Assembly: GCA_973895155.1 (NCBI GenBank)
Contig: OZ316893.1
Span: forward strand, 23,458,015-23,522,014
Length of the DNA: 64,000 nt
Source of the DNA: Marsupella aquatica
Lineage: Eukaryota > Plantae > Marchantiophyta
Reading direction: 5' to 3'
Part shown: positions 2,682 to 56,664 of the stretch, piece after piece
Layout: the number at the start of each line of letters is the position of its first letter
Position numbering within the stretch: position 1 is the stretch's first letter
Notes under the pieces: generated by a model
What the model was told of the DNA's origin: nothing
What the model saw: the letters and a program-made list of their open reading frames with translations, nothing else
Database searches by the model: none
Program-made: the position numbers and the translations under genes

Positions 2682-3013
2682 GAATTCTTTTGCGTCCCTC
2701 TTGTAGTGGAGTTGATTACGAATCAGTCGATGTCCTGTGTTATTCAGCCTGCCATTGGCCCCCAGAAACTAGGAATCTATGACGTTTGCTACACTGTAAA
2801 CATACATTGGCACGGTTTTTAGTAACAAATTTAGAAGTCCGAATTTCTGAAAGTTGTTTGACTTGCACTGGAGCTAGTCTAGGGTTAGAGGAATTATTGT
2901 AATCAGGACATTTATTATTTTCACTCATGGGGAAGATCTGGAGGTATCTGACCATGATAAAAATCCGATTTTTCGATTTTATTCTTTCCACGACAATTAT
3001 ACGCAAGTTTACA

Positions 3014-4108
3014 ATGGAATCTCAAAATGTTTCTTCAGTGTGGGAGAAACTTCTTCCTGGCATCCCGGATGACGTTGCTTTGGCCGAGATTGCTACAAAG
3101 ATCACAGCGAAAGATGTTGGTATCTTGTCTTTAGTAAGTCCTCGATGGCGACAAGAAATTCAGCATCGAGTGGTCTACAATTCGAGACTTCGCTGCTGTT
3201 CAACAGAGACTTATGTAGTCCTTCAAATTTGGGATCGTGGTCCCGGTGGACTCTGTCGCAGTGAACACTGTCTTTATTCCTTGAGCGACGACACTCTGCA
3301 TCGACTCCCTCGAATCCCAAAGTTCCGCTTTCCCTACGGGTTCATAGCATTGGATGGTAAATTATACGTCTTGGGAGGAGGAAGCCCGTGGATTGAGAGC
3401 GATCGACAAACTGACTCCAGAAGAGTATTTGTCTTGGATTTGGCTGGACACCAGCAGTGGAAGCAATGTGCAAGTATGCTGCAACCACGAGGAGATTTTG
3501 GATGTGGTGTCATGAATGGGAAGATTTATGTGTTCGGTGGTAGTTCTGTTGGCTACGGGGATCATCCAGAAGGTGCATCAGAGGTGTATGACCCGGAGCT
3601 GGATTCTTGGTTCCCGGTTAAGAGCATGCCACAAGGGAAAATGAGCGATATAGTTACACCTGTAGGTGCAGAGCTCTTTGTGCACGGTCGGGATGCATCT
3701 CCATTTCAAGTTTATCATGCAGGTAAGGATCAGTGGCGAGTCGTGGAGCTGAGACGCTATGCGAGACAAATATTCATTTTCCGCGGAGAATTCTATAAGT
3801 TCAGTGCATATGGCATTGACATCTACGATACTGAAAACAATATGTTTTGGACGCATTGGTGTTCAATCACATGTGATGAACTTGGACCGGTTCACTCTGT
3901 AATGATTTTCCCCAAGTTTATTTTACCTGTGAAGAACGAGCTGTTAGTGAACGTGAGTTGGATCAAAATGGATCTTACCAGCAGGGGAGATTGTCTCCTT
4001 CTGAGTTCGGGGTTCGGGAGCAAGGACCACGAGGTAGTGTGGCGGAAAGCACCATGCGCTTTTGGATATCAAAGGCTCGAGAATTTCATGTGCCTTGTTG
4101 AGCTTTGA
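3014..4108 (+). CDS. F-box/kelch-repeat protein (array copy 1)
   Basis: N-terminal F-box LLPGIPDDVAL...LSLVSPRWR; kelch motifs LDGKLYVLGG, MLQPRGDFGCGVMNGKIYVFGG, EVYDPELDSW. ATG 3014 chosen by alignment with paralogs (the ORF is open from 2927). Single exon. Confidence 0.92.
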   Translation: MESQNVSSVWEKLLPGIPDDVALAEIATKITAKDVGILSLVSPRWRQEIQHRVVYNSRLRCCSTETYVVLQIWDRGPGGLCRSEHCLYSLSDDTLHRLPRIPKFRFPYGFIALDGKLYVLGGGSPWIESDRQTDSRRVFVLDLAGHQQWKQCASMLQPRGDFGCGVMNGKIYVFGGSSVGYGDHPEGASEVYDPELDSWFPVKSMPQGKMSDIVTPVGAELFVHGRDASPFQVYHAGKDQWRVVELRRYARQIFIFRGEFYKFSAYGIDIYDTENNMFWTHWCSITCDELGPVHSVMIFPKFILPVKNELLVNVSWIKMDLTSRGDCLLLSSGFGSKDHEVVWRKAPCAFGYQRLENFMCLVEL

Positions 4109-5382: not shown

Positions 5383-5786
5383 GTATTGAGCATGAGGTTA
5401 CGTTTTGATTTTTTGCGTGTAGCGCAGCGCAGCCCATTGAATCCATTGGCCAAACAATTCCCTAAAATGCCATTCCCGCCTCCCGCCAGTTGCAGGTTGC
5501 TTACATACTCATCCTGTCCTTACTATTGCTTACCCTGGCAGGCGACGTTCACTCGCGAAGCGCAACGTAAGAGTGTGTATGATCTTCATTCAACGTTTTG
5601 TTAGTGAAATGTATTTCAATGTTTAGGTATTTTTTTATAAGTGGATTCTGAAATCGCTGCCTCTATATCGAGCTCATTGTGCTCTTCGCTTTTTGCAGAG
5701 AGCTTACTACTTGCTCAGTCGAATAGCGAGACCATAGCGAGAACGTACATAGCAAGAAGCACCAAAGGACGGTAAGGCAGCTCTAC

Positions 5787-6689
5787 ATGTCGACCACAAC
5801 CCTTTTCGATGTTCACAGTGTTGTCATGAAAGAGGAAACAGGTTTCCTGGGACCGTGTAGTGTTGAGGTCTTAAATTTCATTGCCAGCAATCCTTTTCCA
5901 AAGAAATTTGTGTATCGGGGTTGTACAGAGGTCATTCCCCGAGGCATGTGTAAGATCTCCATCGAAGGTCCCAGAGGGAACCATTGTGAGCATGATGCCA
6001 TTCAAAATGGAACCTATACTGAATTCTTCCGTTTTGAGGTATTGTTGACGGATGGTACTTTGCATTCTTCATACGGCAAGCCTGCCTTGCGAGCGGCAAT
6101 TTGGGATGCTGCCAAAGACTTGGTGGGTCTCTCCGCAAGTGCATTAGCATCTATGGAGCCAGTGGATCAGTTCCAGGCCATCCATGATTCAGTGAAGCAT
6201 GCGCCACTTTGCAATGTAACGTTTCGGATCAATCATGGAATTTTGTCTGTCCACGAGTTGGCAATTGTTTCATCAAATAGCACATTGCCGCCATCCCGTT
6301 TGTGGACCCAAACGCGGACACCTGGGCGGCCTGGGCGCCAAGGATTGCGAGGACCACAGTCACCGCATCCTCCACGCGCTTGGACTCCGTCAAGGCCACA
6401 TTTTAATGTGGTTACTGCCACATCTGGAAGCCAACATTCATCCCCTTCCCCAGTCATCACGCAAAAACCACTTGCAACTTCGGCGCTTGTACCGACGATG
6501 AAGACCCCGACATCCTCCTCTTACACCACAGCTACATCAAGCCAAGGAGACATGTCAGAGGTGGTACAGGATGATTGCAATGTCGATGTCGATGACTCCA
6601 GCCAGCAGGGCACCATCTCTTCCATCATTCGACGCCTAGCAGAAGTTTTGAATACATCGTTAGATGCATACTCTGGGTGGACCCGATAG
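5787..6689 (+). CDS. MULE accessory ORF: RPA70 C-terminal-like OB-fold/zinc ribbon plus S/T/P-rich tail
   Basis: Intact 300-aa ORF. FVYRGC...C...CEH...FRFEVLLTDGT...AIWDAAKDLVGLSASAL resembles the Rep_fac-A_C pattern (YxAC..C..C..C; Y.L...I.D.TG; F...AE.ILG.SA.EL). Confidence 0.6.
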   Translation: MSTTTLFDVHSVVMKEETGFLGPCSVEVLNFIASNPFPKKFVYRGCTEVIPRGMCKISIEGPRGNHCEHDAIQNGTYTEFFRFEVLLTDGTLHSSYGKPALRAAIWDAAKDLVGLSASALASMEPVDQFQAIHDSVKHAPLCNVTFRINHGILSVHELAIVSSNSTLPPSRLWTQTRTPGRPGRQGLRGPQSPHPPRAWTPSRPHFNVVTATSGSQHSSPSPVITQKPLATSALVPTMKTPTSSSYTTATSSQGDMSEVVQDDCNVDVDDSSQQGTISSIIRRLAEVLNTSLDAYSGWTR

Positions 6690-9569
6690 ATTGTTGCATG
6701 CAGAATAACTCTAGCGCAAATCATTGCAATGCCATGTATGCATACAGTTAGCCATTTTGCGATGAACAGCCAAAGTTGAACAATATTGCTGGTTTTGTAA
6801 ATTTGTTCCTCGGGCTGAAGATGGACCGCTAGCTTCACTATACAGTATGATGATAAACAAATTATATGTTGTTTCCCTCTTATGTGTTGCGTCAAGCATG
6901 CTCTTCAATGTTTTATTCAATCTTGGAATGTTTGTTTACTGTAGTAAAATTGTACTGTACCCGAGTGGCTTCCCCAATTGCATTTCACTGCATGCAGTGA
7001 TGCAGGCTTCGTCTGCACAACATAATCACAACAGGCCCTACGCGTTTGTATCTCATGTTCTACAATCATTGGCAGAAACGCCTAGTAAGGTACAATGTAA
7101 AAAAGATCGTACGACACTGTTATCCTTCATTCATTCACCAACACTAAGTCGTGGCATGCCGTTGCACTATTCATGTTGCAGGTGTCAGGACCCAATGCCG
7201 CGCAGAAAGACCCAAGTACTTCCTAAGTACTTACCAGTATGTGAAAACCTCATTTACAGTTTCAGTTCTTGCTTTACATGTTGAGCCTGCTTACTGCATG
7301 CGTTGCCCACTGAATCATTCCTTCTCTTATTATAGGGTCCTGCCAAAAGCCAAACTATCTTGGAGGCAGACAAAGAGATTATTCCTGCTATAGTTATGGT
7401 GGATTCCAGTATGGTCCCGATACTGGCACTGCCAGCACCACCTGGCACAACCCATGGTCTGGCTTTAAGGAATACTTTAGGGCCACCTGTTGAAGCTTCC
7501 GGACCTCCTATTGTAATTCCAGTGGAAAGCCCCAAAGCCGCGTCATCTGAGCCCACAGCCCGCATGGCAAACCTAAACAGCAGTGATGCCAATGCCTGTG
7601 ACGACAATGAAACTGAGGCTGTCCGCCCACATGGAAAGAGAAGAAAGTCTAAGGAGGCTGATGTAAACCCTGTTCAAAGCAACCCGGTTTACCCCCCGAC
7701 AAGCTAAGGTTGGTGTTGAATACAGGAACCAGTCCCGCTATACTCCAAGAAAACCAAAGGTTGGTCTTCAATATTTAGATAACGTGCTTGAAGAGACCGA
7801 CGTGGAGGACAGGCATCCTACCCGCAACGACCAAGTTGCCAAGACACATGCACCATGTCCTCAGGGGAATTTGCAGCCAAAGCCTGCAGATTTTTGCAAA
7901 TGTGCTGCATTACGTGAACCATGTGCCCACTGCAAAGCGGTAACGTGCCTATCATTCATTTTCTTGGAGTTGTTTTTGTGCATGTTGAATTACATGTTGG
8001 ACTCTAAATGAGTAATACTGCATGGTTTATACTTTTGAACAGGAGTCTGCAGTGACCGGTGAAGTGACATGTGAAGCTAAGGAGGGAGTTCATTTTTCTC
8101 GACACGGCATTGGTGCTGTTTGCAAGATGCTGCCTTGCAGAAATGTTGTGTTTAAGAACCTGCACACGTATGGTTGTCATGTTTACAAAAAGCATGGACT
8201 AATCAGTGAAGGCACCCCAAGATCATTGTATACAAAAGACCCACTTGCACAGCACCAACGCGAAATGAGGAATGCAGCTCGGCGAAAGCAACCAGGAGCA
8301 CAACTGTCAGCCAATTACTACAGTGCACGGGGAACACTACGACAGAGATGGAGCATGGCAAAAAGAAGGATGAAGTGAGTACTGTTCAAGCCTTTCTTCA
8401 TGATGCAAGCCTATGCTATTCAGTAGCAGTCCCGGGCCTGGCTATGATTTCTTGCTGCCACTGACAACTAATTTCCAATTCATTGGTGCAGGGCAACAAC
8501 TCAAAGCAAGTGGGTCACCCAATTTGAAGAGAGCCGTCTAAATCACCCCCCACCTATAATTGCGCCTCCGAATATCTTCATCATGTTCTTTGAATTTTTC
8601 ATGCCAAAACTTGGGTTCCACGCCTGGGACAGTCTAATGAACGTTCGCGACTGGGCTTGCTTGCAAGCCTTGATTTCGCAGTGCCCACATGCGTCATATG
8701 TATGTTCATGGACCAACCAAGCTCTTGCTGACATCAAAGATAATGCATATGGCCACTTGGACGAATCTGGAGTTGGGCGATTGTCCCGCACTGCCACTGC
8801 TCTTCAGAATTTTTTCGAACCATTGGATGGCTCCTTTGGTGTAGTTGAAGTCCACGACGCCATGGCGGTGCTTTGGAACCACCTATCACTACAACACTAC
8901 CCACACCTTTTGCGAACTTGAAAGCATCGCAAACAACAAAGGAAATCAAAAAACAAAACTCGCCTTTGCGAAGTATCGCGCATCGCAATAGAATCGCAAA
9001 CTGCGAAGCCCAAAGGTTCGCATCCGGTCTTTCGCAAGACCTTCGCAACGCCTTTGCAACTTGCGACACTAATAGAATCGCAAAGGACTCACATTTAAGC
9101 GACTCCGTGGGCGTCGCGAGAGGCTTATGATAATAATCAAGCAGTTAAATATTTGCAATCCCAGAAGTTTGGTAATCGGTTTGCGATATTAAGTTAATGG
9201 TAGTTATGCCATGAACATGGCTTCGCATTTTTGTGAACGTATGTGGTTTGCATAATGTTTGCGATACCTTCAATATGGTAAATATGCGAATTGGGTTGTT
9301 CGCATAGGTTTCGCAAGATGTCTTGAGGCTAGGGTTTAGATTTAGAGTTTTGAATTATGGTTGGGGTCTTGTCGTCCAACACGGAGAATGAGGTCTGAAT
9401 CAAAATTGCTTTATAGAAAATTGATAGGTACACAAAAATTAGGGTTTCCTAAACCCTAAACCCTAGATGGGTGTCATATGACAAGCTAGGTCCCTATAAG
9501 ACTACCCATATCAAAACTATATACTACATTAAGTAAATGGGCATCCCATAGGCACTACACCACCAAGCT

Positions 9570-11545
9570 CTAGAATGGGGTCCTCCTACTCCTTGTCGCC
9601 GGCCTCTTCCCCTTGTCCCTCTTGCGACGATCCGGACGTGGCACAGGAGGTGGTGCTGGCTGCTCCTCCACATCTGGTTCCTCCTCGTCCTCGTCCTCAT
9701 CCTCTTCCTCCCCCTCCTGCTGGGAAACTCCTCCTACTGGTCCAGATCCACTACTCCCTCCTACCTTGGGCCCCTTTGTCGTGGTCCCCTCATTGTTCTC
9801 ATCGGTGCTGCTGGTATCACTGGCATCCTCATCATCCTGTTTGCACAGCACAACGCCAAATTGGTTTAGGTTTACGGAATGAAAAGATAAGTGGATTGGG
9901 TGGGAAAAACTGAAGGGGATACATGCACTTACAGTCGCCAACTCTGCGTCAACCAAGTCAAAGAGATGTTTGGCTCCATGCGCAACTCCTATCTCCATCT
10001 CTTTTGCTGTTATCTTCCTGCGGTACCTCTTATACTACCACAACCAAACATTCCAAAACCAAAATAGATCGAGGTTAATATGCTATAAACCCAAGAAAAA
10101 TGCATGGAGGTGCTAATAGGGTGCCCCCTAACACAAAACTGGGCTCAATAACCCTTAGCGGTTTTTTTAAAACATAATACACACTTGCGAAACTCCCCAC
10201 TTCGCAAATTCAAATAAATTGGCTGTTTGCGAAGTAGTTTGCGAAGCGAGTTATTTCGCAATAGCTTCGCATTTACAACTTTAAAAAATGCCATGATAGA
10301 CTTTGCGAAACATTTGCGAAGCAACCCGCATCGCAAAAGCTTCGCAAACTCTATTTTTAAAAAATTCCGAGAAATCTCTAAGGCACGCAATGTGTCAGGG
10401 TGACCTAAAGTACAAGGCAGGCCGTAAGAAAGAAACAAGAGGTATGCAGGGGGGCATTGCAGGTTTGGATAGCAATTGAAAGCAAGGAAACAGAAGCAGG
10501 GGAGGAGAGGAGAGGGCCCACTCACAAAGTGTGCTTTGAGGCCGGGAAGTCCACCTTGGCCCATCTTGTGCGTGGTCTTGGGCCGTTTGCTGACTCGCTC
10601 AGCTGCAAGGATGAATTTTTGGGTTGGTGCACCCACTTCATCCACAATGTGCTGCATGTGAGACACTTTCTCAGCCATTGCCTTGAGCTCTCGGTCGGAC
10701 TTCCCGGCCTTCTGTGCCTTGGCTTCCATCTCCTTCCAGAAGAGAAGGTTCCTGGCAGCTCTCATCTGCACCTCCACTTTGTAAAAGGCATTCCACACGT
10801 CCTCAGTGAATTGCAGTGGCCTCCTCACGTTTCTGTACTCCTCCAAGTTTGCCAGGTAGGCCCTTACCTTCTTCCTATCATGGTACCGTGCTTGAGACAT
10901 TGAATTGGAAATTCTATCTGCAAGCCACTGTTCATCAATCTCTGCTCCATTTCGAAATGAATCTTTGATTTGACTCATTACTTTCTTCTAGTCTGCCTTG
11001 CTGAGTTTCCCCCACTCAACTCCTCGTGCAAAATTGGAGCGCACCATAAGCCTGATAGTGCTCTTTGCCCCAGTGTAGGCCAGTTCAGTAGGAATGCCTT
11101 CGATCAAGGCAATCATAGGCAGCTTCTTCCTCTCTTCCTCCTTCTTTCGCTGCTCCTCCCGCTGTGCTCTTATCTCATCTCGTTCCTCTCTCCTCCTCTT
11201 CTTTTCTAGGGCAACAGGTGAGACTACTCCTGCCTTGGCCCTCTCCTCCTTCTTACGCTTCTTCTCTCTTGCCTTCTGTTGAGCTGCACTCCTTTGCTCC
11301 TCCTCCCTTGCAATGTTCCCTGCATCTACTCCCGTTTGCAAGGTTTGCCCAAGGATTGCACTCAAAGAAGCAATCCCTGCTGGTGTAGTCAAATCTAAGT
11401 GGCTCAACTGTGCTGCATTGAGGTGCTCAGCCATCAAATCGGTCCATCGATTCCTCACCTGCTCCCCATTGCCTTCATTCCCATTGTCACTCTCACTCAC
11501 CCCTGCCCTATCACCTCCATTTGCTCCACTGGAATCCATAGCCAA
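9570..11545 (-). pseudogene. CACTA TnpA-like (Ptta/En/Spm-like) second gene with an in-frame stop
   Basis: ORFs 10988-11545 and 10145-10978 share a frame and are split by one TAG (10988-10990). Motifs RRPLQFTEDVWNAFY and HKMGQGGL resemble Transposase_24. Acidic/basic C-terminal exon at 9570-9870. Confidence 0.55.
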
Positions 11546-12837
11546 GCCACCCCCCGAGCGCGCGCGAGCTCCCTTCTCCCTCCCTACGCTTGAAATTTGT
11601 CAAATGCCGCTGAGTACGCCGCGGCCGAGTGCAAAAGTACAAGCGGGAAAGACTTGCGAAGCAACCCGTTTCGCAAGTTGCGATTCTTCTTGTTTCGCAT
11701 ATAGTTTCTCAATTTTGCGAAACCATTGCGACGTGAAAGGCTTCGCAACACCTTCGCTCTCTCGCAGAAATGCTCTCGGGCTCTGTTTTTCTGAAGGTCT
11801 TGCGAAAGCAGTAGCTTCGCAAACCTCAATTCTAATTTGTGATGGTATTTGCAAAGGAAGCGGCTTCGCAAGACATTGGCAACTCGTCCTGGGGGAATGT
11901 TGGTTTCATTTGAAAGGGTTTTTTTCAAAGGTGAAGTGGACCCCTCTATGCTCATATTTGGAATGCTTTTTGGCCATGTTTTGGGTGTTAGATAATAGTT
12001 GAAGGCGGGTTTGAATGGTTAGGCAGATTTCAGGTTAATGGGTTATGTATGGTGTTGGTTTAGGCTAAGGTTTGGGTTTACATTAGTTTAGAAGAAATAA
12101 TAAAGGTGTGGGATTTGGTTTACAAGAAATAAGTAAGGTTTGGGTTTAGGGTTTTAGGGTTTGGGGTTTTTAAATAGAAAGGTCTCTAGGGTTGAAGAAA
12201 GGTTTGGGTTTGTGTGTAAGTCAGATTTAGGTTTAATAGGTAGGATGCGGTTTGGGGTTGAAGGTTTGGATAAGACAAAGCAAGGTTTCATGAGATTTAT
12301 ATTGCAGCCTTTTGGGTTTAAGAGAGGTTCATTGGGTTTATGAATCAAAAGGGGATTGGCATGGGTTTTGCTAACAAAGGAGGGGAATATATGATAGCTT
12401 GCAGGGTGCGGCACTTTTTGATGATTTGATACTAATGCATATGCATTGTGAGAGCCCGGGCATCTGAAAGGTAAACATTGCATGATCGGCTAAAGTGTTC
12501 CTTTCATGTACTTAACACTTTTGGTTGCCACTATGTATAAAGGGGACATGTATATAGGGTTTTTTGTTCTTGTCTGGTCCAGATTATTGTGCTTACATAT
12601 ACATGGAATGGTTGCAGCTTTTCCCTCATACTTTCAGATTGGGTTCATTAATTATCTTAGAGCCACAAGAGCTATTGGCACTGCTGAGCCCGGGTCTCAT
12701 AAAGGTACCTTTTTTATTGCTATGGTCATTTTGGTTTGGGTTTCTTGTCATCATTATTTGGGAACTTTGATTTATATCATTTTGTGGTATGTTTTGGTCA
12801 TAACATGCCCATTTTAATTATATCTTGTTACAGGGAT

Positions 12838-13990
12838 ATGTCTTCATCTTCTGAAATCTCCACCACAGACTCGTCCTCCTCTGATGAAGATACACCACCT
12901 CCACCTCAACATCACACGACCGCACCTCCTCCTCGCGGTCCACCCCGTCAACTTTGTGAATGTTCCAGATGTGTGGGTCAGGTTTCCCAAAAATCTTACA
13001 TATGTGCCCAACATATTGAGAGATATGGGCGTTGTGGACGTCATACGGCAGGGGCTTCTTCATCTCATATGGTAAGTGTTATGCCTTAGTTTTCCTACCC
13101 TATTCCCATTACTCAATGGTTGAAGGTTTGCAATTTCACACCTACTTTTGTTTGTTTTGGTTTCGGTGGAATAGGTATCCAATAGGCCTAGACCTGCGGC
13201 ACAAGCACCCTATGTCCCATCACAAGGTGTTCTAGATGCTATAGGCAATGCATTCTCAAAAGCCTTGGGTCTAGCGGCAAGGCCCACCAGTCCTAGGGAA
13301 GTTGGGGTTGAGGCTATTGTCCCAAGAGGGAGAAAGCGTTCCAAGAGGCGGGCCCGAGGGGATACTGATTTGTACAAGGCAGTGGTTACGGGTCGGTGGG
13401 GTGATTGTGAGTTCACTGGCAGATGTGTCCCTATCATCAAGGACTGGGATCCTGAGACTCTTGGTTTGCCACAACAGCTTTCCTACGGTGCGGAGGTAGA
13501 GGTTTGGGGTAGACGTTGGGTTATCAAACCTTCCACACTTGGGGATAGACATGGCTATGGAGTTTTTGCCTGTGAGGACATCATTGTGGATGCCGAGAGT
13601 GGTAGAGGTGGACGCGGCCGAGAGGGGCCTACTTTGTTTCCTTATGGTGGACCCATCTACAAGAGAAGACATTGGAACATGATCCTTGCACAACACCCTG
13701 AGTGGAAGACTTATGCATTGGACATGGATACTTTTGATGGAAACACTAGAAGGTATAGTGAGCAGCGTGTCATAGATGGGGACCCCATACGGACTGGGAA
13801 TATTGCTGGTTTCATAAACAGTACCGTGGGGACTCGCCCTAAGCGTAGGCAAAATTGTGAGTGGGTTTTCATTGAGGGTCCTCCACCAGCACCTTATGGC
13901 CAGACATATCATCATGACCATTGCCTAGTTGTAGCAACAAGGACCATTAACTCAGGGGATGAGTTATTTACTCACTATGAGTGGGATTAG
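12838..13990 (+). CDS. CACTA-encoded SET-domain protein (exons 12838-13071 and 13175-13990, ~349 aa)
   Basis: SET motifs: GYGVFACEDI, LFPYGG, IDGD...GNIAGFINS, NC, VVATRTINSGDELFTHY. Exon 1 (CECSRC...HIERYG) ends ATG|GTAAGT in phase 0. Acceptor TAG|GTA at 13174/13175 is in frame with the SET ORF. Confidence 0.85.
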
Positions 13991-14166
13991 GGTTAAGTTA
14001 AGGGTCATAGGTGGTATGTTGCATATCAAAGGGCACTACATATGGCCTTTGGCCACATTTTGTATTTGCACCACAACCAATATTATTTCATTTTTGCACA
14101 CCCCTAGCCCATTTTTGTGTGTGTTCTCTTTGCAATATAACTTTCAATTGTTTGCTTTGTTTTTAG

Positions 14167-17100
14167 AATGTGCGACCCTCTCCAAATATGTTACCACGGA
14201 GATTGAGAGCAACATATCGAGAAATGGGTATGCCAGAAGAAGGACATGGATCAGAGTCACACTCCTCATCAAGTGCTAGTGGAAGCAGTAACCCTGATGA
14301 AGAGGTACCTCGGACGGATGAACAAGTAACTGATGACCAGGATAGAGCCATGGATGACTTTATGGTTGATTGGTTTGGTGCCGACAACCTTGGTGATGAC
14401 CTTCCCAATGAAGGGCAGGTGCCCCCCAATGATCCACGCCCAAGGCATACCCCTGAGGGACAACGCCAATGGGAAGAAGCAGAGGAACATGCCCGAACAC
14501 CTATCTATGAGGGTGCTCGTTTGAGTCGTCTTTCAGCCATCTTGGGGTTGATGAACCTACAGGCCAAACACAAGGCAAGCAATGCCTTGTTATCTGATAT
14601 GTTTGCACTTTGCCATGACCTTATGTTGCCCACTGAGAATGTGTTGCCAGCAACTTGGAAGGAGGCAAAGAGTGTTCTCTCATCTATTGGCATGGAATAT
14701 CATATTGTTCATGCATGTGTGAATGATTGCATGTTATTTCATGGGGCCAATGCAAACATGACACAATGTACAACATGTGATGAGCCTCGCTATGACCCCA
14801 ACATGCTAACAAAGAAGGTGCCAAGGAAGGCTGTTCGTTGGTTTCCCATCATTCCTCGGTTGTTGCACATGTATCGGTGTTCTGACTTGGCAGAGTTGAT
14901 GGTATGGCATAAGACTCATCGATCAGAGTCTGGTGTCATGTGGTTGCCAGTTGACTCCCCTGCTCACAAACATATTGAGGCAACATGGCCAGACTTTGCA
15001 CATGATCCTCGCCATGTGAGGCTAGGATTGGCATCTGATGGAGTTAGCCCTCATTCACTTGGAGGAAAGGGGCAACCTACATCAGTTTGGCCTGTGGTTG
15101 TCATGAATTATAACCTCCCACCATGGCTATCCATGAAGAAGGGGTTCCTTTTATTGTCTTTGATTATCCCAGGTCCAAAAAAGGTGAAGAACTTTGACAC
15201 TTACTTGGCACTATTGGTTGGAGAACTTCAAAAATTATGGAATGGAGTGTGGGCATATGATGGCAGGAAAATTACAGGAGGTTTTCCACGTGTCTTTCAA
15301 TTGAGAGGGATCATTTGTTGGACAATGCATGACTATCCTGGTAAGATGACTTCCATGCCATTTGCAACCCTTCAATAATGTGTAGTTCCTATTGATGTTT
15401 CTCATGTGACAACCCTAACATAAAGTTTGCATGGTTTGATTTCTTCTATGTAAGCAGGGTTTGGTTTTGTCTCTGGATTGCAAACTCAGGGGTACAAAGC
15501 TTGCTCTACTTGTGGCCCAAGCTTAGAGGACATGGCCACATATTGTTCATGGATTAGAAAGATTGTTTATATTGGGCATACAAAGTTTCTTCCCATGGGG
15601 CATGAGATGAGGTTTGACCCACTTCTATTCTCCTCCTTTGACATGCCATTTGGTGATGAGCGTGAAATTCCTGATGCAACAAGTTTTGCACATTGGAAGT
15701 CACTAGCTAATAGGGTGGCAGACCCAAATGATTCCTTCACCTTTGATAGGACAGGTTTGACCAGGTGGAGTGTACTAGCCACTTTGCCCTATTGGTCTGA
15801 GTTGAAGATCCGCCATCTTTTAGACCCCATGCACATAGAGGGAAATGTGGGGAAGGCTTTGATAAAGCATTTTTATGGGGAGAAGGACACTAATTTTAGG
15901 GAGGCATGCGAGGAGATGGAAATGCATCCAGATGTTTGGGTGACAATTGATCCTATCACAGGTGTGGAGAATCGTCCTTCTGCTCCTTGGGTGTTGAGTG
16001 TTGGCCAAAGACGTGAATTTCGGAACCGTATAGGAGAGATGCGGTTTCCTACAGGCTATGGTGCCAACCTTTGAAAAGCTTTTGGGATGGAGGACAATCA
16101 CAAGTGGCCACGATATCTGAAGACACATGACTATCATCGCCTATTGCAGCATATATTGCCAGTGGCAATTATAGGTATAGGGAGTGAAGAAGTGCAAGAT
16201 GCCATCTGGTCATTGGGTCGTTTGTTGAGATGGATATGCTCAAAGGAGATATATGTAGAAGAGATCCCTGGGATGGAGGTATTGGCAGCTGAGGTGGTAT
16301 GCAAGTTGGAGAAAGCCCTTCCTCCTTCCTTCTTTGATTGTCAGGTTCATTTACTTGTGCATCTTGTGCGGGAGGTTGCCATTGCAGGTCCAATGCATTG
16401 TAGATGGATGTATTGGCTTGAGCGTTACATGGCGGTGTTGAAGGCTTATGTACGTAACCGTGCACGGGTGGAGGGAAGCATAGCTACAGGATACTTGGCA
16501 GCAGAGAGTATGTTTTATTGTAGTAACATCTTGGCCACCATTGATCCTACTTGTCCACGTACTTGGATGGAGGAAAGAGAAGAGGAGGAGGACTGTTTAA
16601 CAGGTGCCACAAAAACACGCATGTTGACATCAACAGAGTGGTCATAGTTGACAACATTTATGTTGAGTAATAGTAATATCATGGAGAAATGGAGAGAGTT
16701 TTATGAGAATGCCAAGAGAACAAGTCAAAGAGCAAGAATTTTTCCTAAGATGCATGAGTATATGAAGCAAAAGTTGCTTGAGTTGGATGACATGGTGACA
16801 CAAGGAGGAGATGTGTCCCACTTTCCTACCATCACAGATGACGTTCGGACCATTGTTCATGGCCCTTTGAGAGTGGTGACATCCAAGACGGCTATGTGGA
16901 CACAAGGGAGACACTTCAGGTCCACTAGTACCTAACCTTTCTTCCTCTATTAATTCATGTAGACCTTATTTTGATTAGTTATTTCTATTGTTTAAAAACT
17001 TTCTATTATCATTAATGACATCCATAACTGTAATGTTGGCTTCTATATTTATGCCATAGGCCATGTGGGTTTTGGCTATTTAGGGATGGGTGTCATATTT

Positions 17101-17659
17101 TGATGATTATTACATTAATGGTATCTTTTACAGTGTAATAAAAATTTGTGGGTTTTGTTAATTTTAGGGGGTTTCTTCCCTTGATGAGAAGAGGGGTCGT
17201 ACTTTTGATTGTGGAGTTCAAGGGGAATTTTCTCAAGACTCCAGAAGCAGCCGCCATGACAGGAACATTGTTAGAGATGTTGTGCCACACTATGGGAAGA
17301 TAGAGGAGATCTTGGTGGTATCATATGACAACCATTCAAAGTTTGAGGAATATGTCTTCAAGTGCAAGTGGTTCAAAGTGAACCTTGTTGGTCAAAATTG
17401 CACTGTACTTCAAGATGAGAGTGGGTTTACACGGTTGAAGACAAGTGCCACTAGTGTTCAAGCATCTCATTGGCAAACGTCAGAACCATTTGCTTTCCCA
17501 TCACACTTGGAGCAATGTTTCTACATTCCATACCCCTTAGACACCGAGTGGTCAATTGTCATCACCTATGTGCCACGTTCTCGTTCCATTGTTTCTGAGA
17601 AGCCAGATGTTATTGTATCAGACCTAGATGACCTTGAGGCCGATGAGGACCAAGTGTGA
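14167..17659 (+). pseudogene. CACTA TnpD/Tnp2 transposase (Transposase_21 + DUF4218 + DUF4216), with two nonsense codons
   Basis: Motifs HACVNDCMLF, WFPIIPRL, RHVRLGLASDGVSP, WPVVVMNYNLPPW, MHDYP|G, LDPMHIEGNV, LKTHDYH, PPSFFDCQVHLLVHL, RWMYWLER, HYGKIEEI, EPFAFP. Introns at 15341-15457 and ~16920-17167. In-frame stops at 16072-16074 and 16645-16647. Confidence 0.93.
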
Positions 17660-18335
17660 GGGACATATTTATATGCACTTGGGTCCAGCCTAGACATTTG
17701 TTCATGTTATATTTGATTTGTTCATGTTTGGTGATATAAAAAAAAGGATTGTCTATATTTATATTTGCCATTCACTTTTGAATGAGTCATACTCATGACA
17801 TATGTATTGTATTGTTTTATTGTGATCACTTGTGAATTTTACATGCAACTTTCTATCTAACCTCTGTTGCTCAATATAACTTTATTTCCTACTTATTCCA
17901 TAATTTTCATTCTCACCCTCGTGTTTCCCTCCTTCGTGGTACGTCTGTCCCTCCTCCTCCCTTCCTCTTTCTCCTCCCTCCTTCCTCTTCCATTGTACTC
18001 CCTCCCTTTTCCATCCTTCATTGTACCTCCCTCCATCCTCCCTTCCTCTTCCCTCCTGCCCCATCCATATATTGGACCATCCACCCTCTTTATTGTCTCA
18101 CCTCACAATAACCTTAATTTTTAGTTTGCGAACAATTTGCGAAGCTCACAAACTCTCACCGGACTCGCAATTTATATGAAGCTTCTCGTTTCTCAATATT
18201 TCCATACTACACTCTTCGCAAACTTGTGATGCAAAATCAATCACAAATTTCATATTTTCAGCGTTTCGCAAATCTTCCATCCTTCAACATTTTTAAACTT
18301 GTCAAACAACTACTATCGCAAAACATTTTCAATCC

Positions 18336-18532
18336 TGTTGTAATAGACAACTAAAGGAACACTCAAAGATACTCCAACAAGATAGATTCATTACTATTGA
18401 TGAGGGGATATATATATCCCCTTGGTTACATGGTAGGCAAATGCCCTTATACTGGTCCTATGGTTAGGAGTTCTCATACTATGGTTAAGGGTTCTCGCCC
18501 TATGGTTAAGGGGTAAACTAGGGTTTACAACA
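18336..18532 (-). repeat. copia 3' LTR
   Basis: Identical by eye to 24013-24209. Confidence 0.95.
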
Positions 18533-19036
18533 CTCCCCCTTGGTTAGTTTATGGAGGAGCATAAAGTAACCACATCTCTTGAACCTAGGGTATAATCCGG
18601 TTTAGGGGTCCACCTGTGTGATGTAGCCTCATTAAAACCTCGCCGCTTTCTTCTCGAGGAAAGAGTGCTACCATCACTTATATAGGTGGTTTCCCATATC
18701 TAATGTCCTGGTTAAGCCTTTTTGCCATGTCTTAGTTAGTGTTAATCGTATGTGCTAAGTGGGGTTATGTGAATGTTCCTAATGGGTGTCTAGTCTCCCC
18801 CTCAGCTCGTTGCCTGGTGTGCGCCTCGTGTTGTTCTTCATGTCGTTTTGCGTATTGCGCTTCGCTTCGTGTTGTGCTTTGGGTTAGTGAGGCCAAGTCG
18901 GGCGTTTTTGCGTTGGTTTGCGTTGTTTCACGTCGGGGATGTGGTGTGGCGCTCGCCGAGTGTGGTGGTCGGGCATCTGGAGGCGGCTTCATCGGGCGAC
19001 AGCTTCGTCGTTGGGTAATCCTTTCGAGCTTCAGTG

Positions 19037-20614
19037 TTATGAGGTGGGCTTGATCGTGGACAATCTGCTCATGCCTATGCCTTCGAGGTGCGCTCTGTGC
19101 AATCCGGCTGGTAGTGGTTTCGTAAACATGTCTGCTCGATTGTCCTGAGATTTGATCCATGCAACATTGATACTTTTCCCTTGTTGTTCTTGCGTGAAGA
19201 AATACTTGGGGTCAATATGCTTGGTCCTCTCGGTCTTCAGGATTCCGTTGGTTATCTGGTCGATACACGCCTTATTGTCTTCGTAGATTGTGGTTGGCTC
19301 TGTTATCTGTGGTTTACCGGTGCTGGACCTAATATGATTGATAATGCTTCGTAGCCATACAGCTTCTCTGCACGCCTCGTATAACGCTATGATTTCCGAG
19401 TGGTTGGATGACGTTGTGGTCATTGTTTGCTTTGAACTTCGCCAAGATATTGCTGTCGTCCCCTGTAAGAACACGTACCCAGTCTGTGATTTGGAGTCCT
19501 GGGGGTCCGACAGGTAGCCGGCATCAGTGTAACCGGTAAGCGTATCGGGGCTATTCTTAGGAAAGAATAGTCCAAGGTCGATCGTCCCTTGTAGGTATCT
19601 CATGATCCTCTTGATGCCGTTCCAATGCCTGATGGTGGGCTGTGCTCTGTGTCTCGCTAAGAGACTGACGGCGAACGATATGTCAGGTCTCGTCTGGTTC
19701 GCTAGATACATAAGGGCGCCCACCGCTGATAGGTACGGTTTTTCTGATCCCAGTATGGGTTCGTCTTCTTGGCGCTTCCGAAACATATCTTTGATCGGGT
19801 CTAGAGATCTGAGTTCCATCGGGGTGGAGACAGGGTAGGATTTCTGCATGTTGAATTGATGAAGTATCTTCTGCGTGTATGTCGATTGGTAAAGGAATAT
19901 GCCTGTTTCTAAGTGTTCGATCTGCAGGCCTAGGCAGTGGTTGGGTCTTCCAAGGTCCTTCATCTCGAAGACTCCTTTCAGTGTATGTATTGTGTCTTTC
20001 ATCATCTGTTTAGTCCCGAATAAGTTCACATCGTCCACGTACAGTGCTAGTATCAGGACTTCGTCCATATGCTTTTTGATGAAGATGCAGGGGGCCAGTC
20101 CGCTATTTGTAAATCCGAGGGCGAGCATCTCTGTCTGGAATTTCTGATACCAGATTCTGCCGCTCTGTTTAAGTCCGTTGATGGAACGTAACACTTGGAC
20201 TGTAAGTTTTGTTGTTAATTTCTTTCCTCTGGTATGCATTGCCTGTGTATTTCCACTTTGCATCAAGAGGGCCTTTGTATCCCCATCAGGTATTATTTGG
20301 CTGATGCCCTTTTTAATCTCTGTATTCAGGTTCTGGGACGTCTCCCCCTGAATGTGCTGCTTGACCCTCTCTATCAGTTCCGGGGGGGCAGTCATGTATA
20401 TCTCAGTATCGAGTGTGCCGTAAAGGTACGCGGTTACCACGTCCATAAGGTTATTAACCAGTTTATGGTGGACTGAATGTGCTGTGAGATAGCGATATGT
20501 AGTAGCGTCCATTACTGGTGAGTATGTTAAATCGTAGTCCCTGCCCGGGATTTGTGTGTAGCCTTTGGCTACTAGCCGGGCTCGATATCTTACTACTATG
20601 CCTTTCTCATTTCG
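19037..20614 (-). CDS. copia reverse transcriptase-RNase H (separate frame)
   Basis: RYRARLVAKGYTQ, MDVVTAYLYG, LYVDD, GYTDAGY, SSNHSEIIAL, YEDNKAC, RTKHI, ADMFTK. Confidence 0.92.
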   Translation of the reverse strand, partial: RNEKGIVVRYRARLVAKGYTQIPGRDYDLTYSPVMDATTYRYLTAHSVHHKLVNNLMDVVTAYLYGTLDTEIYMTAPPELIERVKQHIQGETSQNLNTEIKKGISQIIPDGDTKALLMQSGNTQAMHTRGKKLTTKLTVQVLRSINGLKQSGRIWYQKFQTEMLALGFTNSGLAPCIFIKKHMDEVLILALYVDDVNLFGTKQMMKDTIHTLKGVFEMKDLGRPNHCLGLQIEHLETGIFLYQSTYTQKILHQFNMQKSYPVSTPMELRSLDPIKDMFRKRQEDEPILGSEKPYLSAVGALMYLANQTRPDISFAVSLLARHRAQPTIRHWNGIKRIMRYLQGTIDLGLFFPKNSPDTLTGYTDAGYLSDPQDSKSQTGYVFLQGTTAISWRSSKQTMTTTSSNHSEIIALYEACREAVWLRSIINHIRSSTGKPQITEPTTIYEDNKACIDQITNGILKTERTKHIDPKYFFTQEQQGKSINVAWIKSQDNRADMFTKPLPAGLHRAHLEGIGMSRLSTIKPTS

Positions 20615-23600
20615 TTTTTTTTCAAGAATGTAAATCGAGAGTCGGTGTAATGTGTACCTGGTAATGCCATTTTAAATGGTCCGAATACTTGTCGCTTGAT
20701 GAGGGCGTCCATCTCGGTATGTATTGCTGCTTGCCACTTTGGCCAATCTGGTTGTTTCTTTGCCTCGTTTATAGTGAGCGGATCAGGAATATCGTTGGTG
20801 ATTTCCTGTATTACGTTATAGGCAAATTGTTCATCAATTTGGGTTGTCGGTCGTTTATATATGTTACCTGTTTGCATGTATGTGATTGACATTTCCTCGT
20901 TTTCTTCACTCAGTGGGTCGTTTTGATTTATCGCTGTCACGTTAAGTGTGATCGCTGGTTCCAGCGCGGGTGTACCCAAGTTTGCTGCTGGAGTTTTACG
21001 TTGGCGAGGCTGGGAGTCCTTGATCCCTGGTGGTCTGCCTCGCTTTGCTCTGGGGGCTGTTACATTGGCCGGTGTCGAGGAGGTTTGTACTCGCGATGGC
21101 GCATTAGCTGCTAAGTTGTGGGATCTTGTGACATTTGCAGCGTCGTTAAATGAGTCTGGAATCTTTTCGAGCATTTCATGTAGGTGGAGAAGTCTTCTGA
21201 CTTCTTCGTCTGCCTGCTTGGTTCTGGGGTCATTTCTGTTTTGGTCTGCTTTCCAATTTATGGGCATTTTCGTTGTGTCCTTGGATTGTGTTGATGCTGT
21301 ATTCGTGAGCTGTGGGAATTGATCTTCATAAAAATGGCAGTCCTGATGTCTTGCCTTGAACAGGTCTGCCGTAGTCGGTTCAAGGTATCTAATGATCGAA
21401 GTAGAGTCAAACCCAACATAGATACCTGCATTCCGTTGGGGTCCGAGTTTTGTTCTCTTTGGTCCTAAGATAGGCACCATTACCTGGCATCCGAAAATGC
21501 GTAGGTGGGACAGGTCCGGTGGTATGCCGAACGCCAGGTGGTATGTTGTCTTAGAGTTATATGCTGACGGTCTATATTGGATTAGTGCAGCTGCGTGAAG
21601 GATGGCATGTCCCCATGCTGATGTGGGTAAGTTTGACTTCATTAACAGTGGTCTTGCCACCATTTGAAGTCTCTTAATAACCGACTCAGCTATACCGTTC
21701 TGAAAATGAACGTGGGGAACTGGATATTGAGTATCGATGCCCGCTGCCCAGCAAAAGTCGTCGAATGTTCTTGATGTGAACTCGCCAGCTCCATCTACTC
21801 TTAATCTTCTTGTAGGATACTCTGGGAACTGTGCTCTTAATTTAAGAATATGTGCTAAGATCCGCGCAAATGCCAAGTTGCGGGTAGATAGCAATGAAAT
21901 CTGCAGCCATTTAGTTGATGAGTCGATGATTACCAGGAAATATTTGAAAGGGCCGCTCGGGGGGTCTATAGGTCCGCAGATATCTGCATTGATCTGCTCT
22001 AGGAACTGTGGTATTGAAAATATTGTTTTTGGTATTGATGGTCGTATGGTCATTTTTCCTTGTGAGCACGCTATGCAGGCTGTTTTTACCTTTGGCTTGA
22101 CTGTCTTGGGGATTCCTTTGGAGTCCCTTATAATCCTGTTGTACATAGTGGTACCCGGGTGGCCCAGTCGACAGTGCCAGATGTATGTCATATCCTCTGA
22201 TTCTTGGTGTATATGGAATGTTTGGATACTGGTTGCGTATAGGCCTGGGGGGATCAATGCAAATGTTTCTTTAATGGATGGCTTACCCTGTATGTCTTGT
22301 ATGATCTGTAATGTCTCTGTTTTGCCCTGAGTATTCGTGCGCAGTTGGAGGTTATTGGATCTGATATCCTGGAAGCTGATGAGGTTTCGGGTTGCTTTCG
22401 GGGCATAAATTGCTGACTTCACGGTGATTTTAGTTCCTCCTGGTAGTATAAATGTGGCTCGTCCTTTGCCTTCTTCTATATGATTAAGTCCTGCTATGGT
22501 GGTGATAGCGCGGGATGATGGGGTGATGGCCTCGAAATACTTGCTGTGTTTTAAGATAGTATGTGAGGTTCCGCTGTCGATGATGCCCGTATCGGGGTCG
22601 TCTAATGTCGGGTATTTCCAGTCAGTAAGAGAGGTATGTACTTCTATCTGTTCTTGTGTTTCTTCTCTCTGAGAGGCAATCAATTCTTCTTCTATCTCCA
22701 TATAATGTCCTTGGGGGTTTTGTCTGGACTTATTTCTGTCGTTTATGTATCTGTGGGCCTCTTGTTCTGTGGCTGCACATGCGTTTCTAATGTGGCCAAT
22801 TTTGCCACATCGGTAACACATTTTCTGGGAATTGTTTGCAGTGTCGTATTGGTTGCTTCGTCCTCTTCCTCTATTATTCATGGTGCCTCTGCGCCACGTG
22901 TTATTGGATCCGGAGGGTCGGTTATAAGGTTTGCCTTGTCCTCTGAATTGATTTCTCCCGCCCCTGAATTGGTTTCTTCCGCCTCTGAATTGAGTTCGTC
23001 CGCCCCGGTAATTTCCTCGTTGTTTGTCTTCATAATTGGTGTAGTGGGTTTCAGGTCGATGTGGTGGGGGGTCTGATCCTGCTGGGCGCTTTCTGGCGTT
23101 TTGCAAGGCCACGATCTGTTGCTTCTCTTCCACAAGTAAGTGAGCAATCAGATCTGAGTACTTAGTGAAACGCATGTTCCTATATTGTGTACCTAATGTG
23201 ATATTAGATTCAGGGAATGTCGATAGTGTCTTATCGATTCTATCTATGTCATTTATTGGATGTCCACACATTTCTAATTGAGATGTAATTCTGCACAGTG
23301 CGCTATTGTAATTGGCAATTGTGGTGTGGTCCATGACGCGCAGGTTATGCCAATCCCTTCTTGCCTCTGGGAGCCATATCTCCCTCATATGATCAAATCG
23401 GGCTTTGAGGAGATCCCATAGTTTTCTTGGATTAATTTCGTTCATATACTCATTCTTTAGTTGAGGGGTTAGATGTTGCCTGAGTAGAAACGCTGCCTTA
23501 GCCTTTTGTTTGAGCGTGACATCGATGTCGGTATCTAAGGTGTCTTCAAGGTCTTGTGATGTAAAGTAAGTTTCGACATCTGTGATCCACGTCAAATAGT

Positions 23601-23766
23601 TGGATCCGTCGACTTTAAGTGCTGGCCATAATAATTTTTCGACTGTATTCATTATTCGGGATGTCAGTTGATTTAAGAACTTTGGTGAAGATTGAATCGA
23701 GTGAAGTATCTCGATTGTACAATTGACCGGTTGGAAGCTTGTATATGGAGCTGAGGGAGCTTTCAA
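20596..23766 (-). CDS. copia gag-protease-integrase polyprotein (first ATG at 23652)
   Basis: CCHC knuckle CYRCGKIGHIRNAC, protease IIDSGTSHT, HHCC WHCRLGHPG...CIAC, integrase core RVDGAGEF / QNGIAE. The frame is lost at an A8 run at the start of RT. Confidence 0.92.
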   Translation of the reverse strand: MKAPSAPYTSFQPVNCTIEILHSIQSSPKFLNQLTSRIMNTVEKLLWPALKVDGSNYLTWITDVETYFTSQDLEDTLDTDIDVTLKQKAKAAFLLRQHLTPQLKNEYMNEINPRKLWDLLKARFDHMREIWLPEARRDWHNLRVMDHTTIANYNSALCRITSQLEMCGHPINDIDRIDKTLSTFPESNITLGTQYRNMRFTKYSDLIAHLLVEEKQQIVALQNARKRPAGSDPPPHRPETHYTNYEDKQRGNYRGGRTQFRGGRNQFRGGRNQFRGQGKPYNRPSGSNNTWRRGTMNNRGRGRSNQYDTANNSQKMCYRCGKIGHIRNACAATEQEAHRYINDRNKSRQNPQGHYMEIEEELIASQREETQEQIEVHTSLTDWKYPTLDDPDTGIIDSGTSHTILKHSKYFEAITPSSRAITTIAGLNHIEEGKGRATFILPGGTKITVKSAIYAPKATRNLISFQDIRSNNLQLRTNTQGKTETLQIIQDIQGKPSIKETFALIPPGLYATSIQTFHIHQESEDMTYIWHCRLGHPGTTMYNRIIRDSKGIPKTVKPKVKTACIACSQGKMTIRPSIPKTIFSIPQFLEQINADICGPIDPPSGPFKYFLVIIDSSTKWLQISLLSTRNLAFARILAHILKLRAQFPEYPTRRLRVDGAGEFTSRTFDDFCWAAGIDTQYPVPHVHFQNGIAESVIKRLQMVARPLLMKSNLPTSAWGHAILHAAALIQYRPSAYNSKTTYHLAFGIPPDLSHLRIFGCQVMVPILGPKRTKLGPQRNAGIYVGFDSTSIIRYLEPTTADLFKARHQDCHFYEDQFPQLTNTASTQSKDTTKMPINWKADQNRNDPRTKQADEEVRRLLHLHEMLEKIPDSFNDAANVTRSHNLAANAPSRVQTSSTPANVTAPRAKRGRPPGIKDSQPRQRKTPAANLGTPALEPAITLNVTAINQNDPLSEENEEMSITYMQTGNIYKRPTTQIDEQFAYNVIQEITNDIPDPLTINEAKKQPDWPKWQAAIHTEMDALIKRQVFGPFKMALPGTHYTDSRFTFLKKNEMRKA

Positions 23767-23995
23767 TCATGCCAATAAAGTATTAGTCCTTTGGACTCTC
23801 GATATGCTGGTCCCGAATTGGTGCTCTATGTGAAATTTCGTGTTTTGTAAAAAAAATTCAACTCTGAGGCAAAAGAATGGAGACCAAGAAAAAAAACGGT
23901 TATGGCAGTTTCTAAAAAAAAATGCCACTTTACGAGCATTCTCCTCGTGTAAAACTCGATTGCATCTGCTTGAAAAAAAATGATTTTTAGAGACT

Positions 23996-24012
23996 GGCTC
24001 GTGCTGATAACG
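23996..24012 (-). other. Primer-binding site CGTTATCAGCACGAGCC
   Basis: Lies immediately inside the 5' LTR. It is not a TGG-type PBS and resembles the Bianca-type PBS. Confidence 0.7.
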
Positions 24013-24209
24013 TGTTGTAATAGACAACTAAAGGAACACTCAAAGATACTCCAACAAGATAGATTCATTACTATTGATGAGGGGATATATATATCCCCTT
24101 GGTTACATGGTAGGCAAATGCCCTTATACTGGTCCTATGGTTAGGAGTTCTCATACTATGGTTAAGGGTTCTCGCCCTATGGTTAAGGGGTAAACTAGGG
24201 TTTACAACA
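24013..24209 (-). repeat. copia 5' LTR
   Basis: Identical by eye to 18336-18532. Followed on the minus strand by the PBS. Confidence 0.95.
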
Positions 24210-49000: not shown

Positions 49001-49153
49001 GATCCTGATGTTTGGGTCAAGGTGTGTTCAGAGAGAGCACGGGTATTTCAGCGAGTGATGCCCATGGCTTTTGACAACCTTGCCATTGCCCAACATCGTG
49101 ATACTTTGAAGTATGCCACTATTCGTGGAGGAGGTTATCGTGCAAGCATTTGA
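43094..49153 (+). pseudogene. gypsy RT-RNase H-integrase, decayed and split by the 44301-47629 insertion
   Basis: RMCGDYRPIN, GYHQLPI, PFELKNAPAEFQRVMD, YIDDIL, FLGLTSYYRRYVKGF, TDHQPL, LARWALLLQEYDF, and an integrase core. Confidence 0.92.
44301..47629. mobile_element. Non-autonomous TIR DNA transposon (3.3 kb) with 4-bp TSD CTAA
   Basis: Imperfect ~33-bp TIRs AACAAGAAGCCTTAAAGGGTGAGT / ACTCATCCCTTAAGGCTCCATGTT. CTAA at 44297-44300 and 47630-47633. Removal restores RNase H NSAEAK-YSSYEGE. Confidence 0.85.
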
Positions 49154-56332: not shown

Positions 56333-56664
56333 ATACGTACTTGACCACAATTTTATGATCTTTTATTACAGAGTAGAGTACTGTTTGATCGCTAAAGTTC
56401 CTGATCAACTCAATCATGGTTTAGATCTGGTTTTGGTTAGCGTAAGTAGGATGGGCTCACGCAGGACATCTCGGCAAAGAGGGAGTTCTGAATAAATTTA
56501 TGTGTCGTTCGTTTCCATGTCAATAAAATATATTTTATATGGTGCCAGTGCAAGTAGCAGCACAAGCACTATTGAAGCGATTCTGCAGACTTTGAAGTTT
56601 GTCCAAGGCTCATCTGAACTCGAAGAGAATGAGTGAAATTGAATTCTATCCTGTGAGCTATATG

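Follow-up and report, generated by a model that had tools for sequence, protein, structure and literature searches.

Intron 1 of the transposase gene in a CACTA/EnSpm transposon of the liverwort Marsupella aquatica contains an exon that encodes a SET domain, and the splice signals indicate that this one gene likely yields two proteins, the transposase or a zinc-motif-plus-SET protein, via alternative splicing. Our preferred reading, to which we assign a probability of about 0.45, is that the SET protein is an element-encoded lysine methyltransferase, so far predicted, which would modify the histones of cognate copies and thereby counteract their silencing. We regard this as the best explanation because of the SET fold and family, the splice signals, purifying selection and co-divergence with the transposase.

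The CACTA element and its genes

The element lies in the window, by which we mean the whole 64-kb stretch of DNA that was analyzed. Its features are given below in window coordinates.

8887–24499: complete CACTA/EnSpm element, 15.6 kb (9.7 kb minus the nested Copia)
8909–9317: left subterminal motif cluster, TCGCAA / TTTGCGAA in both orientations
9570–11539 (−): orfM, divergent second gene; predicted exons 11539–10526, 10034–9933 and 9836–9570
10185–10348: internal motif cluster within the first intron of orfM; at the corresponding position in L005, L007, L010, L025 and L029
11654–11872: motif cluster between the divergent genes, likely promoter; same place in L005, L007, L010, L015, L025 and L029
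12838–13071 (+): shared coding exon 1 of 78 codons with the ATG, a zinc motif (C-x-C-x2-C-x13-H) and a phase-0 splice donor (GTAAGT)
13175–13990 (+): SET exon; phase-0 acceptor 13173–13174, linker with basic patch (RGRKRSKRR), SET core 13364–13987, stop TAG
14167–15340 (+): transposase exon 2 (Transposase_21, E 8e-38); phase-0 acceptor competing for the exon 1 donor
15458–16919 (+): third exon of the transposase, with the last part of Transposase_21, the C2C and H motifs and DUF4218
17168–17659 (+): last transposase exon, predicted (DUF4216, E 2e-8)
18125–18321: right subterminal motif cluster, resuming at 24222–24478 past the Copia
18336–24209 (−): nested Copia LTR retrotransposon with identical 197-nt LTRs, no part of the CACTA family

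The element is bounded by perfect 10-bp TIRs (CACTACAACA at 8887 and TGTTGTAGTG at 24499), which start with CACTA and end with TAGTG as is typical of CACTA/EnSpm, and by a target site duplication (TAT; 8884–8886 and 24500–24502) of the 3 bp expected for this superfamily. The empty site, in which 8883 is joined to 24500 with three letters in common, was found in contigs of three of the four runs (X1, X2 and X3). Contigs of run X1 that match the element almost exactly had a depth of 530–596, compared with 18 in the empty-site contig; these contig depths do not equal copy number, and they are compatible with a young multi-copy CACTA family. The motif TTTGCGAA occurs 18 times in the 64-kb window versus 2.1 expected, and 17 of the occurrences fall within the element. 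With its clusters at both ends, the element has the subterminal repeated motifs of CACTA/EnSpm. The observed/expected CpG ratio was 0.29–0.44 in the coding parts of the element versus 1.4–1.9 in the motif clusters; this depletion in coding sequence, with CpG kept in the clusters, suggests that the element has long been under silencing or methylation pressure. The Copia is inserted in the right end of the element, and its absence was evident from a Copia-free junction (18330 to 24210) in contigs of all four runs. This retrotransposon is young, has long and open gag-pol frames, and sits in the right subterminal repeats.

The transposase is of the TnpD type, combining Transposase_21, DUF4218 and DUF4216. 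Acidic D, D and E residues, which would be the catalytic ones, and the C(2)C and H motifs were located in it. Exon 3 contains two premature stops (16072–16074 and 16645–16647), and contigs of all four runs carry a different letter at 16645. The second gene, orfM, points away from the transposase gene and encodes a basic, helical product; it is interrupted in the window by a premature stop (10988–10990), and its exon 1 is open in L029. orfM is a conserved three-exon orphan (L029, 485–1477, minus strand; 59% to the Sphagnum-type family) and lies upstream in 7 of the 11 close loci with sufficient flank. No Pfam match was found for its product, and the AlphaFold model was uninformative (pLDDT 55). 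The orfM product may be a TnpA-type binder of the TCGCAA motifs, a candidacy suggested by its position and by a sequence motif. TnpA-like proteins are described as restricted to flowering plants in the available part of a preprint (10.64898/2026.08.24.746577), and orfM is a candidate for such a protein outside them.

Fold and active site of the SET exon

The open frame at 13175–13990 comprises 271 codons, in which GYGVFACEDI, FPYGG, IDGDP, GNIAGFINS and ATRTINSGDELFTHY follow one another in this order, and it ends three residues past the conserved Tyr (Tyr-Glu-Trp-Asp-stop), as a sequence-only reading of the window had described. The profile and structure checks proposed in that reading both confirmed the domain: the Pfam SET profile matched with 27.0 bits (E 6e-6), above its cut-off of 22.4, and an AlphaFold model of residues 64–271, the 208-aa core, built on 74 homologues, adopted a SET fold with pLDDT 91.9 and pTM 0.87. 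Foldseek with this model returned 320 PDB chains at E ≤ 0.001; the top matches listed were all SET domains, led by SET8, LegAS4 and MLL1 at 16–23% identity. VIA-align scores amounted to a tie (Set1 Z 12.1 with rmsd 2.7 over 124 aligned residues, EZH2 11.9, SET7/9 11.8, SET8 11.7, LegAS4 11.1), and SETD6, SMYD enzymes and the SET domain of SETMAR (row 38) were also among the matches. The tied structures include H3K4, H3K27, H4K20, H3K36 and non-histone enzymes; this tie across enzyme classes gives no pointer to an activating mark, and the target lysine is not readable from structure. PDB profile matches of the SET family were weak, the best being LegAS4/RomA (E 5e-6), and a single SET protein searched against PDB with phmmer gave no match at E 10. 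In NCBIfam there was no match for P0001, P0002 or P0205, and P0189 had one sub-threshold chance match.

As had been noted for the window copy, pre-SET and post-SET Cys clusters are absent from the SET frame, and neither pre-SET, AWS/CXC or post-SET clusters nor reader domains were found in any of the 64 homologues scanned. Neither the Cys clusters nor the close kinship of the host histone methyltransferase classes (SUV39, SET1, SET2, E(z)) was found; the SET domain cannot be assigned to any one host class. In 42 of 50 homologues the SET core is preceded by a basic patch, compared with 45 of 227 control windows. Also in the linker (13229–13270), a short amphipathic helix-like stretch, VLDAIGNAFSKAL, is kept in many homologues while the rest is variable; this stretch is a possible partner-binding motif.

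Active-site conservation was counted in 74 aligned homologue rows, with residues numbered from the start of the SET exon. The counts were 66 for G127, 68 for G129, 72 for Y/F157, 72 for Y162, 70 for N209, 67 for N215, 69 for S216, 74 for N227, 65 for E263 and 61 (with 9 gaps) for Y268, and position 270 is aromatic or Leu in 52 rows. The GxG SAM motif (G127/G129), the motif III Asn (N215) and the motif IV catalytic Tyr (Y268) are present, and they are among the best-conserved residues in a family with an overall identity of 25–40%. The Arg and His of RxxNH(S) are replaced by Gly in 69 of 74 and by Ser in 69 of 74 rows, respectively, resulting in GxxNS. The NS in place of NH that the first reading had pointed out is therefore family-wide, which indicates a family trait and not decay. 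The chain stops three residues past Tyr268, leaving no post-SET lid. Two positions ahead of Tyr268 there is always a small side chain (T, A, V, C or I), and since a small residue at this place accompanies multiple methylation in other SETs, this hints by analogy at di- or tri-methylation. LegAS4/RomA, the best PDB profile match, likewise lacks the His, and it trimethylates H3K14 and is thus an active histone enzyme according to the available part of PMC10653858. The same source describes the LegAS4 SET domain as inactive alone, without the ankyrin part, which calls for caution because a short SET may need a partner. We consider it probable that the SET protein is an active enzyme.

Splice sites, relatives and descent

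The sequence-only reading had placed the SET frame within the TIR/TSD limits and within the transposase gene, and this position was borne out: it is the first intron of the transposase gene, in the element at 8887–24499, that harbors the frame. It is, however, an exon and not the gene of its own that had been supposed, since it contains no ATG/Met upstream of residue 169, its first Met, and starts exactly at a splice acceptor. The accompanying picture of a bare minimal SET enzyme holds for the SET part, with its missing pre- and post-SET clusters, but not for the predicted product, which is 349 aa long and includes the zinc-motif exon 1. The exon 1 donor at 13071 fits in frame onto both the SET acceptor at 13175 and the transposase acceptor at 14167. 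Among the close loci that could be assessed, the donor GT was present in 11/11, an in-frame SET acceptor in 10/10, an AG where the transposase acceptor should lie in 18/20, and the SET stop at the identical codon in 22/22. The same three phase-0 sites are readable in L033, where SET identity is 33%, and the donor and both acceptors in L031. NCBI gene models also fuse exon 1 to SET in Calypogeia fissa P0002, Sphagnum P0005 and others. Homologues of exon 1 match Pfam Transpos_assoc below the cut-off (L031, E 5e-4; L033, 0.03; P0087, 0.03), suggesting that exon 1 is probably the native transposase start; exon 1 at 12838–13071 itself has no Pfam match. With SET followed by a stop in all 22 loci, no in-frame fusion to the catalytic domain of the SETMAR type was found. 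A SET–transposase fusion through an internal donor was ruled out by the conserved stop and a phase mismatch, and the fused gene models P0029, P0086, P0124 and P0130, which have a truncated SET or no exon 1, look like prediction artefacts.

Successive searches found 42, 97 and 68 relatives, in agreement with the multi-copy nature that was to be checked. Those with a named host come from Calypogeia fissa, from five species of Sphagnum and from Riccia sorocarpa; the nearest relative, Calypogeia P0002, is 73% identical over the SET exon and 85% over the core. The same order of exons is seen in gene models of Sphagnum, Calypogeia and Riccia as well as in loci of 26–36% identity. Of 29 close metagenome loci, 20 have the transposase behind SET; where 280 nt or more of downstream sequence was available this held for 20 of 21, L022 being the exception, and exon 1 was detected in 13 of the 29 (13 of 16 with sufficient flank). 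Among 14 distant loci, the transposase was found in L033 (33%) and L043 (26%) and the zinc exon in four, three of which were used in, or are nearly identical to, the profile. Eight proteins contain both SET parts and transposase-exon parts. SET is the sole domain on P0001, P0002, P0005, P0043 and P0047, with no N6-adenine methylase partner. In the distant SET clade L035–L042, neither transposase nor zinc exon was found in any of the eight loci within flanks of 0.2–4 kb. This clade (L035–L042 / P0184–P0301) comprises 874 proteins, is AT-rich and mostly decayed, and is related to the CACTA SET family. Three divergent Calypogeia fissa proteins (P0109, P0144 and P0123) have long Cys/His-rich N-termini, fall each in two-member clusters, and are possibly domesticated or on another element. 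Among the 97 relatives of the second search, the repeat protein P0070 is a spurious match.

No close host SET was found among 97 matches from 1.84 billion representatives. With patterns from close relatives, none of 162 candidates in viral contigs was confirmed, and one of 76 in prokaryote genomes, a 36-residue match, was set aside. Viral SETs resemble the SET model by fold, at 16–23% identity, and the SET may still be of viral or bacterial origin.

Comparison with the window copy revealed dN/dS values of 0.15–0.36 for the SET core, 0.08–0.16 for the transposase and 0.16–0.30 for exon 1 across 29 close loci, 28 of which belong to one family, so that these values amount to about two comparisons. 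The proposed dN/dS check came out in favor of purifying selection on SET, and the two outcomes named beforehand as refuting, the lack of a SET fold and a single-copy, neutrally evolving fragment of a host SET, both failed to appear. Among young copies, dN/dS was about 1 (1.25 in 72 pairs with dS < 0.05) and stops were present in 17 of 29 close copies; this is the normal decay of insertions and no proof of current use. Among subfamily variants within two runs, 29 of the 40 listed (of 137) were at third codon positions (p 5e-7), and none was a stop. SET and transposase identities were correlated across seven lineages (rho 0.83, exact Mantel p 0.0006), in a test that includes two SETs from 91%-identical family members and overlaps of unequal length. 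This co-divergence points to one old capture followed by joint descent. In a quick tree, Sphagnum SETs nested with the window SET and Calypogeia P0002 (support 98), placing moss among liverwort-type SETs, and dS was unsaturated (0.7–1.3). Horizontal transfer between moss and liverwort is one possible origin of the nesting, and old paralogous lineages would explain it too. We conclude that SET is almost certainly a selected, functional part of the CACTA element.

Roles, precedents and surroundings

Under the preferred reading, the donor at 13071 would join either the acceptor at 13175, giving the 349-aa SET form, or that at 14167, giving the transposase, both in phase 0. The SET protein would enter the nucleus through its basic patch, and would bind SAM and transfer methyl groups, for which GxG, Asn215 and Tyr268 are kept. 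Recruitment to the element could rely on the zinc exon common to both proteins, or on orfM product sitting on the TCGCAA clusters, and the resulting mark would counter host silencing (H3K9me, H3K27me3, DNA methylation). In the available parts of the sources, transposons in bryophytes are reported to be silenced by PRC2 (10.1101/2022.10.24.513474), and VANC (PMC5735166) and TnpA (10.64898/2026.08.24.746577) provide precedents for anti-silencing at repeated motifs. Against this reading stand the structural tie across enzyme classes, the replaced Arg and His of RxxNH, the missing post-SET lid, the L035–L042 flanks without transposase, and the broken transposase and orfM of the copy at 8887–24499. 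More broadly, and tentatively, an old land-plant CACTA clade might possess its own histone methyltransferases, captured once, splice-switched in intron 1 and writing an activating or as yet unknown self-mark; the SET family may have persisted across mosses and liverworts and moved between them.

It seems unlikely that an active methyltransferase instead modifies a non-histone protein (the transposase, the product of orfM, or a host factor for silencing or repair) and so tunes transposition. SET7/9, SETD6 and SMYD are among the structure matches, all 64 scanned homologues are free of reader and pre-/post-SET domains, exon 1 could recruit SET to the transpososome, and the transposase and orfM product are rich in Lys/Arg; however, histone enzymes provide the best profile and structure matches, and the conserved basic patch before the SET core recalls the basic nucleosome anchors of SET8-type enzymes. 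Self-restraint, in which a repressive mark (H3K27 or H3K9 methylation) is placed on the element or its promoter and splicing switches between jumping and dampening, would suit the structural tie of EZH2 with Set1 (Z 11.9 versus 12.1) and the PRC2 silencing of bryophyte transposons (10.1101/2022.10.24.513474, available part), and two acceptors vying for one donor would in itself reduce transposase output. We nevertheless judge it improbable, because the CpG depletion indicates that the host silences CACTA elements already and because transposon chromatin factors in print, in the parts available, oppose silencing. An equally low probability is given to a SET without catalytic activity, serving to bind a histone tail or as a decoy for a methyltransferase or demethylase of the host: the family-wide GxxNS for RxxNH and the lack of a lid would fit, but few residues are conserved as well as GxG, the SAM-site Asn and the catalytic Tyr in a family of 25–40% identity.

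SETMAR (Metnase) is a domesticated single host gene, an in-frame fusion of a host SET and a mariner transposase, and a role in break repair has reportedly been proposed for it. As in SETMAR, SET and transposase here come from one locus; unlike SETMAR, the locus is a mobile multi-copy element with two separate products. A comparable helper that labels the chromatin of the donor or target site after cutting, for repair by the host, would be favored by the co-presence of SET and transposase from one transcript and by their common N-terminal exon, but SET is never fused to the catalytic core (stop kept in 22/22 loci) and the motif clusters lie at the promoter, not just at the ends, so that we hold this role to be quite improbable. 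The notion of a passive host-gene fragment without a role, in the manner of Pack-CACTA, draws on the frequent capture of gene pieces by CACTA elements and on the many broken copies, but it is largely refuted by the lack of a close host SET among the 97 matches in 1.84 billion representatives, by purifying selection, by co-divergence with the transposase, and by the fixed position and splice phase.

Comparisons with published systems refer to the available parts of the cited sources. The sequence-only reading had mentioned no awareness of SET as a described component of CACTA elements, a view that is superseded by Plavaka PAG2 of red algae, a SET cargo in the EnSpm/CACTA superfamily already in print and proposed to be a chromatin modulator (10.1101/2025.02.11.637652). 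Both cases share a SET methyltransferase domain on a CACTA-superfamily transposon and a proposed chromatin role. PAG2, however, is a gene of its own in which SET is joined to an N6-adenine methylase, and it belongs to a cassette of three genes that moves between transposon families, whereas the SET described here occupies an intron of a Transposase_21/DUF4218/DUF4216 gene as an alternative exon, comes with no methylase partner and co-diverges with the transposase. SET is also carried by HarbingerS and Phytophthora MuDR (cited in PMC12730594) and by a Phytophthora proto-Helentron, where it is Clr4-like and intronless (PMC4067079). These are likewise stand-alone SET cargo of DNA transposons, but in other superfamilies and hosts, whereas the CACTA SET family lacks a close host subfamily and has the NS motif.

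Alternative splicing of one CACTA gene to a transposase and an accessory factor is classic (PMC13547354; 10.64898/2026.08.24.746577). In maize En/Spm and in Arabidopsis ENSPM3 (TnpA/TnpD), as is likely here, one gene gives rise to both, and the accessory product acts against silencing through repeated motifs. TnpA binds DNA by a helix-turn-helix and is no enzyme, whereas the predicted splice partner here is SET, and the TnpA-like candidate is separate and on the opposite strand; the wording "SET domain" is absent from the main text of both sources in the parts available. VANC of VANDAL elements (PMC5735166) is similar in being element-encoded and acting on its own chromatin through short non-coding motif arrays, but it belongs to the Mutator superfamily, is no SET, and has a demonstrated effect where ours is proposed. 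Fungal EnSpm elements with TET/JBP (PMC12730594) also carry an epigenetic enzyme, but one with DNA demethylation chemistry, and the genes are often exchanged between superfamilies. Nothing further on SET cargo was found in the available parts of a Spirogyra preprint and of PMC11982613. A SET exon in a land-plant CACTA element was not found in the literature searched, whose scope excluded Repbase and most subscription journals; by that measure the land-plant, shared-exon form is the new part, SET cargo as such being known.

Transposon escape from silencing is understood in few systems (VANC, TnpA), none of them a histone writer with demonstrated activity. The CACTA SET, being small (208-aa core), intact and well modeled, with candidate target motifs and hosts that have tractable relatives, makes it testable whether transposons write their own histone marks. 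It may also be a compact methyltransferase of new specificity, and it accounts for the orphan "SET domain" gene models that number in the hundreds in genomes of mosses and liverworts, which are transposon products by this reading.

The CACTA element is itself enclosed by a larger TIR element (5083–29790) with 184-nt TIRs of 97% identity and an 8-bp target duplication. This element contains transposase remnants (26696–27555, minus strand) with a SWIM-type Cys/His motif and no Pfam match, which we take to be MULE-like, and a multi-exon accessory gene (5727–8921, plus strand), also without a Pfam match, that was broken by the CACTA insertion and is possibly a VANDAL-like cargo. A Gypsy-type integrase fragment (H2C2, rve) is located at 48173–49153, and inverted arrays with units of 19 nt and 35 nt at 57136–58299 are perhaps the ends of a small non-autonomous element. 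The nested transposons are flanked by tandem F-box/Kelch genes (2903–4108, 53112–54221, 55181–56400 and 61628–62800), three of them confirmed by Pfam and one a partial copy, a family that fits a land plant.
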